A DNA stretch of 64,000 nucleotides. Origin: an uncultured Candidatus Saccharibacteria bacterium (lineage in GTDB: Bacteria > Patescibacteriota > Doudnabacteria > UBA920). The notes under the pieces were generated by a model. It did not search any database, was not told the origin of the DNA, and saw only the letters and a list, made by a program, of their open reading frames with translations. Both the position numbers and the translations under genes were made by a program. Where the stretch lies: contig CAZEKH010000003.1 of the NCBI GenBank assembly GCA_964512925.1, positions 16,772 through 80,771 of the forward strand, given 5' to 3'. Every line of letters begins with the position of its first letter. Positions within the stretch are counted from its first letter, which is position 1. Shown one piece after another: positions 14,924-25,845 of the stretch.

Positions 14924-15047
14924 CTCGTCCCTTTACTATTCTACAGAAAGAAATTGCCCCACTTTTTTGCAAAGTGAGGCACTTTCTTTATGGCGGACTT
15001 CAGCGGACTTCCGCCAGAGGCGAATAAACATCTCGTCCCTTTACTAT
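14924..15047. repeat. Short element bounded by 16-bp direct repeats (ctcgtccctttactat at 14924-14939 and 15032-15047), containing a hairpin and a palindromic tRNA-3'-end-like motif
   Basis: Direct repeats read directly; internal hairpin gccccacttttttgcaaagtgaggc (14956-14980); palindrome tggcggacttcagcggacttccgcca (14991-15016) whose arms equal the tRNA-Asp 3' end AGTCCGCCA. Confidence 0.5.
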
Positions 15048-15290: not shown

Positions 15291-15335
15291 TGGTGCCGGG
15301 AAAGGGAATTGCACCCCTGATCCGCCTATGGCGGA
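15291..15335 (-). pseudogene. Decayed tRNA fragment (T-arm plus acceptor 3' strand and CCA) fused to a TCCGCC-TAT-GGCGGA palindrome
   Basis: Minus strand ..CAGGGGTGCAATTCCCTTTCCCGGCACCA has a T-arm and CCA end but no complementary 5' acceptor strand; it shares the unusual T-loop TGCAATT with the tRNA-Met at 15370-15446. Confidence 0.45.
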
Positions 15336-15369
15336 CTTATGTACCCCGCTAAAAGAATTGTTTTCTTTT

Positions 15370-15446: not shown

Positions 15447-15475
15447 AAAAAATTTACTAATCCGCCTCTGGCGGA

Positions 15476-15513
15476 CTATGAGTCCCACGCTCTAACTAAC
15501 TGAGCTACTCCGG
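15476..15513 (-). pseudogene. Partial duplicate of the tRNA-Met 5' half (acceptor 5' strand to anticodon loop), preceded by a TCCGCC-TCT-GGCGGA palindrome at 15461-15475
   Basis: ctatgagtcccacgctctaactaactgagctactccgg nearly identical to 15400-15446 of the intact tRNA-Met but lacks the 3' half. Confidence 0.5.
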
Positions 15514-15532
15514 CTCTCATAAAATAACTAAC

Positions 15533-15568
15533 AAAAAACCTGCGGACAGCAGGAAAAGGCTGTCACAA
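15533..15568 (-). terminator. Rho-independent terminator downstream of tRNA-fMet
   Basis: Minus strand ..gacagccttttCCTGCtgtccGCAGGtttttt: stem CCTGC/GCAGG followed by a T6 run. Confidence 0.5.
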
Positions 15569-15575
15569 TAATTTT

Positions 15576-15879
15576 TGGTTGCGGGACCCGGACTCGAACC
15601 GGGAATCTCAAGGTTATGCATACCACTACAATTTTCATTGCTTTGCTTGGCAAATTTGTGGTCTGGACTTTATCTTCACCATAGCTTTTTGCTTTAGGTG
15701 TCTGCCATTAAGTCTCTACGCCTTTCCCAAAAATATTTTGGGACTTGGTTCGGGATTACCATTTTACAGGCTTCCCCGAATTTGACAGAATTCACGGCTA
15801 AATTTCTTATGCCGCAGCCCATTGCGAGATTAAAATCTCTAACTCGAGCCTTGCGAGATGCCAATTTCTCTATCCCGCG
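15576..15879 (-). tRNA. Initiator tRNA-fMet (anticodon CAT) interrupted by a 228-nt group I intron between positions 33 and 34
   Basis: 5' exon (minus, 15879-15847) CGCGGGATAGAGAAATTGGCATCTCGCAAGGCT; 3' exon (15618-15576) CATAACCTTGAGATTCCCGGTTCGAGTCCGGGTCCCGCAACCA. The spliced product has a perfect cloverleaf with a C1xA72 mismatch and an A11:U24 pair (bacterial initiator determinants), anticodon loop CUCAUAA, T-loop TTCGAGT and CCA. Confidence 0.8.
15619..15846 (-). ncRNA. Group I self-splicing intron in the tRNA-fMet anticodon loop
   Basis: Intron follows exon U33 and ends in a terminal G (..GUGGUAUG). Recognisable conserved elements in canonical order: P-like AAUUCGGGGAAGCC, Q-like AAUCCCGAAC, R-like GUAGAGACUUAA, S-like AAGAUAAAGUCC; P7 pairing GACUU/AAGUC. 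No ORF inside. Confidence 0.7.
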
Positions 15880-16117
15880 ATACAGCAATTTTTAGGTATT
15901 GCCTACCTGCGCCAGTCTTAAAATATTTTTCCCTGATCTTAGCTTCTTTTAAAGTTTTAAATTCTTCAAAATAAACCAATTTCCAAGGACCTTTATTTCT
16001 AGTGTAGGAAGGAAAATCAATATTAGTATTATGTTGTTCCAGTCGTTTTATAACATTAGAGGATACCCCTTTGTATAGTAAACCTTGTGGATTTTGAATT
16101 ACATAAGCAGTAAACAT
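15839..16117 (-). CDS. Small GIY-YIG nuclease superfamily protein (YhbQ/UPF0213-like), read-through C-terminus overlaps the tRNA-fMet 5' exon
   Basis: 92 aa; AYVIQNPQGLLYKGVSSNVIKRLEQHN...WKLVYFEEF..EAKIREKYFKTGAGRQYL matches the GIY-YIG catalytic core; the last ~13 codons lie over tRNA-fMet positions 1-33. Confidence 0.72.
   Translation of the reverse strand: MFTAYVIQNPQGLLYKGVSSNVIKRLEQHNTNIDFPSYTRNKGPWKLVYFEEFKTLKEAKIREKYFKTGAGRQYLKIAVSRDREIGISQGSS
15855..15882. repeat. 28-bp direct repeat copy 1 (tRNA-fMet positions 1-25 plus 3 nt of 5' flank)
   Basis: gagatgccaatttctctatcccgcgata; identical copy at 16148-16175 on the other side of the GIY-YIG gene. Confidence 0.8.
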
Positions 16118-16147
16118 AATTTAAAAATTACGATCCGCCATGGCGGA

Positions 16148-16175
16148 GAGATGCCAATTTCTCTATCCCGCGATA
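16148..16175. repeat. 28-bp direct repeat copy 2: orphan duplicate of the tRNA-fMet 5' end (acceptor plus D-arm), abutting the palindrome tccgccatggcgga (16134-16147)
   Basis: Exact 28/28 match to 15855-15882, read directly. Confidence 0.8.
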
Positions 16176-16221
16176 TTTTTCTCACCTCAATAATTATACA
16201 GTATTATTAATTTTTTTGCAA

Positions 16222-16290: not shown

Positions 16291-16365
16291 TTAGCGCTTC
16301 TTTTTCTTGGCGCCGCCTTTTTTCTTGGCGACTTTCTTCTTTGCAGTTTTTTTCTTGGTAGCCAT
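16291..16365 (-). CDS. Possible 24-aa lysine-rich peptide MATKKKTAKKKVAKKKGGAKKKKR
   Basis: ATG preceded by AGGGAGA (spacing ~12 nt) and an in-frame upstream stop; 14 of 24 residues Lys. Below the ORF-track size cutoff. In an AT-rich genome it could be spurious. Confidence 0.25.
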   Translation of the reverse strand: MATKKKTAKKKVAKKKGGAKKKKR

Positions 16366-17830: not shown

Positions 17831-18220
17831 CTACAAATTTACAAGCCTTTTAAATTTAACACCTGAATTTGTAAAATTTGCTAAAATACCAAGCTTGATT
17901 TTAGAAGCTTTTAAATAATCGTTAACTTGTTTGATATTTTTTAAACCAAAATTTTCGTTCTTTTTTATCTCAAGTATTATTTGAGCTCCAGCAATTTGTA
18001 TCAGGAAATCTAAATAGTATATACCAATGTATTTTTCTTCATAGTATATTTTTATTGGAACTTGTTCTTTGAACTCAACACCTGCATTTTTCAAACCGAC
18101 TGCAACAGCTTTTTGGTAATGCTTTTCAAGCAAATTTCCTCCAAGTTCCTTATAGACATTATACAAAATGCCAACTATTCTGTAACATTCATCTTTATAA
18201 ACTAAATCCACTTTATTCAT
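17831..18220 (-). CDS. GxxExxY family protein inserted between atpD and atpC
   Basis: 129 aa; YRIVGILYNVYKELGGNLLEKHYQKAVAVGLKNAGVEF matches the invariant GxxExxY motif and the length (~125 aa) of that family. Confidence 0.7.
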   Translation of the reverse strand: MNKVDLVYKDECYRIVGILYNVYKELGGNLLEKHYQKAVAVGLKNAGVEFKEQVPIKIYYEEKYIGIYYLDFLIQIAGAQIILEIKKNENFGLKNIKQVNDYLKASKIKLGILANFTNSGVKFKRLVNL

Positions 18221-25506: not shown

Positions 25507-25538
25507 CCATTGCTCCCCGCCTGCCTACCGCCTGGAGC
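25507..25538. repeat. 32-bp direct repeat A (copy 1) ending in a tRNA-Thr 3'-end-like tggagc
   Basis: ccattgctccccgcctgcctaccgcctggagc; 31/32 match to 25641-25672, which overlaps the true tRNA-Thr 3' end. Confidence 0.7.
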
Positions 25539-25593
25539 TCCGACGTAAAGTCGGAGTAAACCGGCGATCGGAAACGGGTTTATTCAGCACCTT

Positions 25594-25642
25594 TGGAGCC
25601 GACGATCGGAGTTGAACCGATAACCTATGGTTTACGATACCA
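25594..25642 (-). pseudogene. Diverged partial copy of the tRNA-Thr 3' half (CCA, acceptor, T-arm, anticodon stem-loop)
   Basis: tggagccgacgatcggagttgaaccgataacctatggtttacgatacc parallels the genuine 3' half tggagccgaaagtgggacttgaacccacaacctgcggtttacgatacc. Confidence 0.55.
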
Positions 25643-25672
25643 TTGCTCCCCGCCTGCCTATCGCCTGGAGCC
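25641..25672. repeat. 32-bp direct repeat A (copy 2), overlapping the 3' end of tRNA-Thr
   Basis: ccattgctccccgcctgcctatcgcctggagc. Confidence 0.7.
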
Positions 25673-25742
25673 GAAAGTGGGACTTGAACCCACAACCTGC
25701 GGTTTACGATACCGCTGCTCTACCAATTGAGCTATTTCGGCG
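25667..25742 (-). tRNA. tRNA-Thr (anticodon CGT), CCA encoded
   Basis: Minus strand GCCGAAATAGCTCAATTGGTAGAGCAGCGGTATCGTAAACCGCAGGTTGTGGGTTCAAGTCCCACTTTCGGCTCCA; perfect 7-bp acceptor, D-stem GCTC/GAGC, anticodon stem GCGGT/ACCGC, loop AUCGUAA, T-loop TTCAAGT. Confidence 0.9.
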
Positions 25743-25770
25743 CTAGGCGACTGGCGGGCTGGTGCCTAAT

Positions 25771-25815
25771 CCCGACGCACTTTAGGGGTCGGGACCCCGA
25801 CCTAGTGTCGGGGTT
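25771..25815. other. Two tandem GC-rich hairpins sharing a CCCGAC/GTCGGG stem core, between murI and tRNA-Thr
   Basis: tcccgacgcactttaggggtcggga and ccccgacctagtgtcgggg read directly; no U-tract. Confidence 0.4.
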
Positions 25816-25845
25816 GAGCTACGTCGGCTTATATAAGCTGAGGTA

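Follow-up and report, generated by a model that had tools for sequence, protein, structure and literature searches.

A known GIY-YIG enzyme encoded among tRNA genes is SegB, a free-standing homing endonuclease from the tRNA cluster of phage T4, which cuts inside tRNA genes, recognizes the T-arm motif GGTTCRANTCC in many of them, has a recognition site of 27 bp, and spreads its own gene together with the neighboring tRNA genes (PMC2330249). Cleavable or uncut sites remain in the genome of the phage itself, and a tightly controlled expression has been suggested by the authors of that work as a possible protection (PMC2330249). The locus described here, which has in common with SegB, its closest known system, the GIY-YIG domain and the position of the gene among tRNA genes, lies in a stretch of 64,000 nucleotides from an uncultured Candidatus Saccharibacteria bacterium (contig CAZEKH010000003.1, positions 16,772 to 80,771), referred to as the window, whose numbering is used throughout. 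It consists of an open reading frame (ORF) for a GIY-YIG protein, placed between a vestigial copy of a tRNA-fMet gene, interrupted by a GC palindrome, and the intact gene. We propose, with a probability of about 0.65 judged from sequence, that this is a selfish, minimal tRNA-gene-targeting cassette, in which a stand-alone GIY-YIG nuclease of ~80 codons would sit inside a tRNA transcription unit and be expressed by tRNA read-through. The anatomy of the locus, its polymorphic presence among relatives, the association of the whole family with tRNA genes, tRNA vestiges, and palindromes, and the purifying selection on the protein can be seen directly in the data presented below.

SegB differs from the window protein in several respects. 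It is a phage protein, much larger than 92 aa, whose 27-bp site implies DNA-binding parts, and no target tRNA duplication or palindromes have been reported for it, whereas the protein in the window has 92 aa, is chromosomal and UPF0213/Slx1-like, and is flanked by an intact and a vestigial tRNA and accompanied by a GC palindrome. The window cassette shares its presence/absence polymorphism with free-standing homing endonuclease genes, but not their joined DNA-binding domain. Proteins of the UPF0213/YhbQ type (BH0048, 1zg2; EF2693, 1ywl; COG2827) have the same size and single-domain architecture, and no report of a tRNA-gene link or of mobility was found in the literature on them. Slx1 (PDB 6seh, 7cq3) has a catalytic domain like that of the window protein, but it is a eukaryotic repair enzyme, not a mobile gene, with a C-terminal zinc-finger domain and a need for Slx4. 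Integrase-borne islands and prophages also insert into tRNA genes, leaving a direct repeat of part of the tRNA and one intact copy. However, genomic islands typically duplicate the 3' end of the tRNA, whereas the 5' part is repeated here and either end in the family at large; with no recombinase gene and a unit of 293 bp, an integrase att duplication is ruled out. In the collaborative homing of cyanophage psbA, a free-standing endonuclease gene reportedly lies beside an ORF-less intron that disrupts its target site. Here, likewise, the nuclease gene stands beside and not inside a small insertion, and the palindrome could be a site-disrupting insertion; contrary to that intron, which splices out and so gives back a working gene, there is no hint of palindrome removal, and it is a second, intact copy that gives function. 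Finally, in the same bacterial group, the Candidate Phyla Radiation (CPR), GIY-YIG ORFs occur sparsely in non-intron insertions of rRNA genes, for which a spread by homing is not considered by the authors (PMC11270868). These are also GIY-YIG ORFs inside stable-RNA genes, but neither gene duplication nor palindromes are described for them (PMC11270868). A literature search with most subscription journals outside its reach turned up neither UPF0213-type cassettes flanked by tRNA copies nor these palindromes, and an earlier description is possible.

Every feature of the cassette/tRNA-fMet locus lies on the minus strand, in the order promoter, vestigial tRNA-fMet (nt 1-25, palindrome, decayed nt 33-48), ORF, intact intron-containing tRNA-fMet, and terminator. 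The original prediction, made from the letters of the window, had drawn attention to a 28-mer occurring twice around the GIY-YIG ORF, and the sequence GAGATGCCAATTTCTCTATCCCGCGATA is indeed present in exactly two copies in the window, at 15855-15882 and 16148-16175, spaced by 293 nt and enclosing the GIY-YIG ORF alone; 100 shuffles gave 0 chance matches with up to 3 mismatches allowed. Both copies are found, with 100% identity to the window, in three independent assemblies of the same organism (L001-L003), which rules out an assembly artifact. Copy A (15855-15882) comprises TAT and nt 1-25 of the functional tRNA-fMet, and its identification as the true 5' end of this tRNA is borne out by the joined exons, which match the intronless genes of relatives. 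Copy B (16148-16175), with the same TAT flank and nt 1-25, is the start of the vestigial copy. It was described as a copy fused to a palindrome: the abutment is real, the palindrome TCCGCCATGGCGGA (16134-16147) following copy B directly, but the vestige is not limited to 28 nt, as it runs to around nt 48. Within these ~48 nt the palindrome takes the place of tRNA nt 26-32 (GCAAGGC), and the decayed rest of the copy, nt 33-48, follows at 16118-16133 (TCGTAATTTTTAAATT versus TCATAACCTTGAGATT, 11/16 identical). The palindrome is thus a conserved plug inside the vestige, and not the junction or insertion boundary for which it could be taken.

The GIY-YIG ORF (15839-16117) begins with ATG and encodes 92 aa plus stop, residues 1-79 forming the catalytic domain and residues 80-92 coming from the tRNA 5' exon and the very start of the intron. 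As had been predicted, it crosses all 33 nt of this exon and ends at a TAG 5 nt into the intron; its last 41 nt overlap with tRNA-fMet, and the last 8 of these, stop codon included, with the intron. The tRNA gene is made of a 5' exon (15847-15879, nt 1-33, ending at U33 by alignment to the intronless tRNA-fMet of L093 and L004), an ORF-less group I intron of 228 nt in the anticodon loop, between U33 and C34 (15619-15846; Rfam RF00028, 64 bits), and a 3' exon (15576-15618, nt 34-76) with encoded CCA. Joined, the exons give a tRNA of 76 nt, matching the intronless tRNA-fMet genes of relatives, which ARAGORN overlooks in the window because the intron interrupts it. This intron is missing from all relatives examined (L004, L007, L091, L092, and L093) and therefore represents a second, independent mobile insertion in the same tRNA-fMet gene. 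The GIY-YIG ORF is not an intron-encoded endonuclease, since it lies upstream of the intron and relatives carry it without any intron. The sole good minus-strand promoter upstream of cassette and tRNA-fMet is the promoter-like TTGCAA-17-TATAAT at 16193-16221 (10/12 consensus matches), with an equivalent TTGCAT-17-TATAAT in L007; a scan between 16193 and tRNA-fMet yielded no further good candidate. A terminator-like hairpin with a T run after tRNA-fMet (15539-15553) is kept in L093, L004, and L092.

Relatives of this locus came from a word-indexed protein search, which gave five homologues whose contigs were fetched for comparison, and from a metagenome search with the 25-nt tRNA-fMet 5' end, which gave empty-site and alternative-site relatives. 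Three loci with 72% protein identity (L004, L005, and L006) have the architecture of the window, with an exact repeat of 27 nt, the ORF, and an intronless tRNA-fMet, and with TCCGCCACGGCGGA as the palindrome, which sits where it does in the window and continues into TCATAACC (anticodon loop). The palindrome of L004 has the arms and the position of that in the window, with AC as its loop; between both loci the 25-nt vestige is identical, the palindrome arms are kept in place, and the segment after them has decayed. In L007, from a Saccharibacteria metagenome-assembled genome (MAG; 60% identity), promoter, diverged tRNA-fMet 5' half up to the anticodon, ORF, and intronless tRNA-fMet follow each other, the vestigial copy carrying TCCGCCTAGGCGGA in its D loop instead of a palindrome at the position seen in the window.

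The original prediction had pointed to relatives as the place where an empty site might be found, and a single uninterrupted tRNA-fMet without the GIY-YIG gene is what both L093 and L092 carry. L093, the closest relative found, also lacks the intron and shares the TAT flank and the downstream terminator with the window. L092 shares its tRNA sequence with the occupied L004 and has the same ACGT flank and the same upstream lysine-rich ORF, and it lacks the nuclease gene. In L091, the gene lies downstream of tRNA-fMet, on the opposite side. The cassette is therefore polymorphic in presence and position around one and the same tRNA-fMet gene. The bases 5' of the tRNA vary by lineage (TAT versus ACGT) and, within a genome, are identical in both repeats and in the matching empty site; therefore, the duplication includes the native flank, of 3 nt in the window, 4 nt in L004, up to 17-26 nt in other single-copy loci, and more in tandem arrays.

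The protein matches the Pfam GIY-YIG family (PF01541) over residues 4-68 (E 1.8e-12), and its score of 47.8 bits is well above the curated cut-off of 22.6. Y5, Y15, G17, R25, H29, N30, and E63 are invariant in 6 homologues, and we take Y5, Y15, R25, H29, and E63 to correspond to Y6, Y17, R27, H31, and E75 of I-TevI. An AF2 model (pLDDT 85.5) has the GIY-YIG fold, a three-stranded sheet plus helices (E2-8, E14-19, H22-31, E46-53, H56-66, and H69-85), and the tRNA-encoded tail, residues 84-92, is modelled as disordered (pLDDT <50). The best sequence matches in the PDB are UPF0213 BH0048 (1zg2, E 6.5e-4) and EF2693 (1ywl, E 4.9e-3), weak ones at 27-32% identity, and the closest folds are UPF0213 1zg2, Slx1 6seh/7cq3, and 1ywl, the catalytic domain of Slx1 superposing on the model at 1.9 A over 71 columns. 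The protein is thus UPF0213/Slx1-like, as its noted resemblance to YhbQ/UPF0213 had announced, clustering there rather than with the I-TevI/Seg type; this Slx1-like fold of the model suggests that branched or hairpin DNA, and not a long sequence, is what the enzyme cuts. Searches of NCBIfam and PHROGs with the protein gave no match. A single-sequence search of the full library returned 2,533 clusters (50% identity) at E<=0.001, mostly of 80-120 aa. Among the window, L004, and L007, pN is 0.19-0.30 and pS is saturated at ~0.75 (0.19 and 0.75 for the window versus L004); on these sequence comparisons, the protein is under purifying selection, and the saturated synonymous divergence between the window and L004 may mean that the cassette has been resident for a long time.

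The family was surveyed with an alignment of six proteins against one genome per species, the counts given here being those of the best 80 of at least 530 confirmed loci. The hosts belong to six or more phyla, Patescibacteria, Bacteroidota, Acidobacteriota, Dehalococcoidia, and Ignavibacteriota among them, and those within Patescibacteria are Sacchari-, Peregrini-, Gracili-, Doudna-, Curtiss-, and Uhrbacteria. A tRNA gene lies at <=130 nt from the ORF in 67/80 loci, always on the same strand (87/87 tRNAs in the surveyed loci), and a partial copy of the same tRNA, in most cases with a GC palindrome in it, lies across the ORF in 53/80. The ORF precedes the intact tRNA in 33 loci and follows it in 34; the partial copy represents the 5' part of the tRNA in the first arrangement and the 3' part in the second, with a repeat period of 290-390 nt across loci. 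The ORF either begins 2-20 nt past the 3' end of the tRNA or terminates within its 5' part. The TAA of the anticodon loop CAUAA serves as the stop for members of the tRNA-fMet clade, a stop that is displaced by the intron in the window. The second tRNA copy is full-length in L053 and L012, and L049 and L053 represent both polarities at tRNA-Arg(CCT) with the same palindrome insert. The general form is thus tRNA copy, ORF, tRNA copy, where decay can hit either copy. Altogether 14 tRNA species are adjoined, tandem arrays and ORF-less remnants are common among the loci, and several unrelated copies may reside in one genome (L011 and L036 in one MAG, and two in L026). A fixed association of one tRNA species with each nuclease clade across phyla was considered and is unsupported: the same-tRNA frequency for pairs of >=55% identity is 0.32 overall and 0.10 across phyla, versus a baseline of 0.07-0.09, and it rises within a phylum only. 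The selfish, tRNA-associated cassette of the original prediction finds support in these mobility signatures of the homologues (67/80 at tRNAs, 53/80 with partial copies) together with the empty sites. Since it is UPF0213-like homologues themselves that show such signatures, a 'housekeeping' label for these proteins does not refute the selfish reading.

The palindromes of these loci were defined as inserts, with colinearity to the intact tRNA on either side as the sole criterion. Inserts so defined are palindromic and fall into two classes. PAL-1, to which the palindrome of the window belongs, has 14-15 nt of the form TCCGCC-N2-3-GGCGGA, with the symmetric variants TCCGGC/GCCGGA, TCAGCC/GGCTGA, TTCGCC/GGCGAA, GTCGCC/GGCGAC, and TCTGCC/GGCAGA, and replaces 3-17 nt of the tRNA, often one whole arm. 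PAL-2 has 20-65 nt with ends CCCGCC..GGCGGG or CCTGCC..GGCAGG and is a clean insertion, whose usual places are the D loop (between G18 and G19), the T loop (between C56 and R57), and the anticodon loop. Since tRNA-derived sequence lies on both sides of the palindrome, it is ruled out that these are terminal inverted repeats of the cassette, and Rfam holds no family matching them. The spacer of PAL-1 is variable in length, with 2-4 nt (aligned vestigial copies have 2 or 3, a lone case at 2072-2087 has 4), which favors a hairpin over a fixed dimer-binding site. The PAL-1 arms of the window and L004 are kept at the same site even though synonymous sites are saturated and the following segment has decayed; hence, the palindrome behaves as a selected, conserved hairpin belonging to the cassette.

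How the hairpin and the nuclease relate to each other allows for bolder proposals. Tentatively, the nuclease and a cognate GC hairpin may form a two-part mobile system that overwrites tRNA genes, inserting beside or into a resident tRNA gene with tRNA sequence as its sole homology, bringing a replacement allele, and disabling the redundant resident copy with a hairpin plug recognized by the nuclease. We hold it unlikely that the palindrome is itself the primary mobile unit and the GIY-YIG protein the nuclease that mobilizes or recognizes it, in analogy to REP/RAYT, with palindromes entering loops of tRNA genes and the duplicated tRNA and the ORF being repair leftovers or a rescue copy. The pure insertion of PAL-2 at defined tRNA positions would fit a hairpin that moves on its own, as would the arrays of palindrome-bearing pseudo-tRNAs without intervening ORF, but PAL-1 substitutes for tRNA sequence and is no clean insertion. 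PAL-1 is also almost confined to pseudo-tRNA copies within the loci examined: 34 copies lie in the 23 kb flanking ORFs versus 17 in the other 209 kb, and nearly all of these distant copies are within pseudo-tRNA copies too. The palindrome type goes with the protein clade more closely than with host phylum or tRNA species, which favors a nuclease-hairpin pair, but the match is not strict: some types, such as CCTGCCTGCCGGCAGGCAGG, accompany proteins of both major clades. Symmetric double changes in 5/6 stem pairs of PAL-1, in a set partly chosen for being palindromic, and the retention of its arms in the window and L004 speak for this alternative, and so does Slx1, the nearest structural relative with a known activity, which cuts branched and stem-loop DNA. 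A palindrome does go with a nuclease gene here, but REP/RAYT proper does not fit: the sole associated ORF is a GIY-YIG protein, an enzyme class different from the HUH (Y1) transposases.

A regulatory role, in which the truncated tRNA 5' end, hairpin, and T run would form an attenuator of tRNA-fMet or of the ORF, is extremely unlikely. Both T-run-followed PAL-1 copies of the window (16147-16134 and 15478-15458) were indeed scanned as terminator-like, but the palindrome has no T run in L004, L007, L008, L009, and most other loci, and it lies downstream of the ORF in half of them. Moreover, the only promoter candidate for tRNA-fMet is upstream of the hairpin and, if this is the sole initiator tRNA gene, transcription must cross it.

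Further palindrome copies were noticed. Nested PAL-2 inserts, with a CCCGCC..GGCGGG element inside the loop of another, occur in L036 (1418-1482) and L081 (~1840-1917) and reach ~65-70 nt in the D loop of the vestigial tRNA. In L021, a Bacteroidales MAG, four PAL-1 hairpins stand in a row at 438-575, spaced by ~40 nt with short related sequences between them, ~180 nt downstream of the GIY-YIG ORF, and no intact tRNA was called nearby. The fourth PAL-1 copy of the window, TCCGCCAGAAGGCGGA (2072-2087), with the 4-nt spacer, is the only one there outside the tRNA cluster, in an intergenic place with no recognizable tRNA-like surroundings. GGCGGA and GCCGGA are also the 5' ends of local tRNA-Met alleles, and a link of these to the PAL-1 arms is speculative.

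For the selfish tRNA-targeting cassette that we favor, mobility driven by the nuclease is what we infer from the comparative patterns above, and the following course can be proposed. The ORF, without a promoter of its own, would be expressed by read-through from the tRNA promoter, and tRNA processing would define one end of its mRNA; in the window, the cut of RNase P at the tRNA 5' end would leave a message without stop codon. The nuclease would break tRNA genes, either at conserved motifs, as SegB does, or at DNA structures, as Slx1 does, stimulating recombination, and the break would be repaired from the cassette-bearing copy. As tRNA sequence is present on both sides of the cassette, the tRNA gene alone supplies both homology arms; these portable arms would allow copying into any genome with the same or a similar tRNA, so that transfer would be possible between genomes otherwise sharing nothing, and a foreign tRNA allele may come along. 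Loss would take place by recombination between the flanking repeats, deleting the cassette precisely and restoring an ordinary tRNA gene, which would account for the scar-free empty sites. A deletion between the two 28-mers of the window would recreate the arrangement of L093, and the resulting cassette-free allele would read promoter-28-mer-GCAAGGCT.

Several observations weigh against such a cassette. The protein has one Pfam domain and no DNA-binding module, and a sequence-specific targeting is not obvious; neither is there a sign of stable target specificity, since closer proteins in cross-phylum pairs share the tRNA species no oftener. The intact tRNA beside the cassette does not differ in sequence from a target and would itself be cuttable, an objection that loses some force because the T4 genome likewise retains sites that SegB can cleave. 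Phages and plasmids hardly ever carry homologues (2 matches in 2.9 million viral contigs, and distant matches only in phage/plasmid collections), so that nothing points to a vehicle for transfer. The same-population contigs bearing the identical neighboring CCA-enzyme yielded no cassette-free variant. Finally, the same site, saturated synonymous divergence, and strong purifying selection in the window, L004, and L007 fit the long vertical residence of a host-useful gene, the empty sites being losses. The last point leads to the view of the protein as a domesticated or housekeeping nuclease co-transcribed with tRNAs, the partial tRNA copies being by-products of local tandem duplication or slippage. 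Besides selection and the shared site in three diverged genomes, this view would draw on the tight same-strand packing with the tRNA in all loci, the rarity on phages and plasmids, and the clustering with UPF0213 proteins, usually treated as chromosomal. We nevertheless consider it quite unlikely, because close relatives with an identical tRNA-fMet may have the gene, lack it, or carry it on the opposite side, and because the family adjoins 14 tRNA species, with unrelated copies in one genome, tandem arrays, and ORF-less remnants. A dead copy plugged by a conserved palindrome is unexpected for a fixed host gene, and the same holds for intact tRNA alleles that differ from their flanking vestiges by compensatory changes, as described next.

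The window contains ORF-less remnants of such cassettes as well, on the minus strand. Upstream of tRNA-Met, an ORF-less remnant (15461-15514) is formed by a vestigial tRNA-Met, nt 1-38 (15514-15476), and the PAL-1 palindrome TCCGCCAGAGGCGGA (15475-15461), after which come a T-rich spacer and tRNA-Met itself, intact (15446-15370). In L015 the corresponding place at tRNA-Met is occupied by a complete GIY-YIG ORF, and PAL-1 stands at the same tRNA position there. Downstream of the intact gene, a second vestigial copy (15291-15349) reads GCGGGGTA..CATAAG, PAL-1, T arm, and acceptor 3' strand ..TCCCGGCACCA, with the PAL-1 palindrome TCCGCCATAGGCGGA (15335-15321) in place of CCCAAGG; the same place holds an unplugged AAGCCCAAGGTC in L093, and the plug is present in L007. 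On either side of tRNA-Met there is thus a vestige with a palindromic plug, a 5' half upstream and a 3' copy downstream. The outer vestigial halves of tRNA-Met, and likewise those of tRNA-Thr, pair with each other and show compensatory differences from the intact inner tRNA: C2-G71 versus G2-C71 for tRNA-Met, and C6-G67/G7-C66 versus A6-T67/A7-T66 for tRNA-Thr. In tRNA-fMet, contrary to these two, both copies are identical. These sequence differences are consistent with the intact tRNA-Met and tRNA-Thr being imported foreign alleles.

In the region 25507-25828, the intact tRNA-Thr(CGT) (25741-25666, minus strand) lies inside the D loop of an older tRNA-Thr, whose outer 5' piece GCCGACGTAGCTCAA (25828-25814) and 3' piece (25648-25594) form a perfect acceptor stem, differing from that of the inner tRNA by the two compensatory pairs. 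The inner tRNA is flanked by GC hairpins with CCCGCC/GGCGGG-type ends, the junction GGCG[A/G]TAGGCAGGCGGGGAGCAATGG is repeated at 25540-25507, and the region has no nuclease ORF. This outer fragment accounts for the second 'tRNA-Thr' that ARAGORN and Rfam (31.9 bits) report. Around 70 nt downstream of tRNA-Asp (region 14988-15024, minus strand), a palindrome with one mismatch, TTCGCCTCTGGCGGA, precedes two copies of the last bases of the tRNA, AGTCCGC.. and then AGTCCGCCATAA, which includes 3 nt of native flank. From its sequence this site looks like a further decayed cassette scar, in which case all three tRNAs of the cluster carry one.

The short-read contigs of L001-L003 all end inside the 36-nt tRNA-Met repeat (window ~15477-15483), which makes the vestigial tRNA copies a practical cause of contig fragmentation. 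Two neighboring genes were also noticed. Upstream of tRNA-fMet, a lysine-rich ORF of 24 codons (MATKKKTAKKKVAKKKGGAKKKKR; 16291-16365, minus strand) has its own terminator and similar ORFs at the same position in L007, L091, and L092, and is probably a real gene for a small basic protein. Between atpD and atpC, an ORF for a PD-(D/E)XK nuclease of 129 aa (17831-18220, minus strand; PF13366, E 1.4e-26) represents a second small nuclease gene with presence/absence polymorphism, in this case in a conserved operon, as atpD and atpC are adjacent in L007, with a gap of 95 nt.

The cassette is akin to free-standing homing-type endonuclease genes, from which it would be set apart by an enzyme consisting of a catalytic domain alone, a target tRNA gene duplicated within the cassette itself, and a hairpin plug conserved in the dead copy. 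If our reading is right, it would give a biological role to a very common, uncharacterized family of small bacterial proteins, and would reveal a compact route across species in which pieces of universally conserved tRNAs are the homology arms and the tRNA promoter provides the expression. It would explain the pseudo-tRNA fragments, false tRNA calls, and contig breaks at the tRNA clusters of CPR and Bacteroidota, examples of which are the second called 'tRNA-Thr' of the window and the assemblies ending in the tRNA-Met repeat, and it would point to such cassettes as agents of a horizontal replacement of tRNA alleles. The conserved hairpin of 14-15 nt is a concrete, testable substrate for the enzyme. 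Should the nuclease and the hairpin indeed form a two-part system, they would constitute a class of selfish elements not recognized before in bacteria, one that drives the horizontal replacement of tRNA genes, and the uncharacterized UPF0213 family would have its first function.

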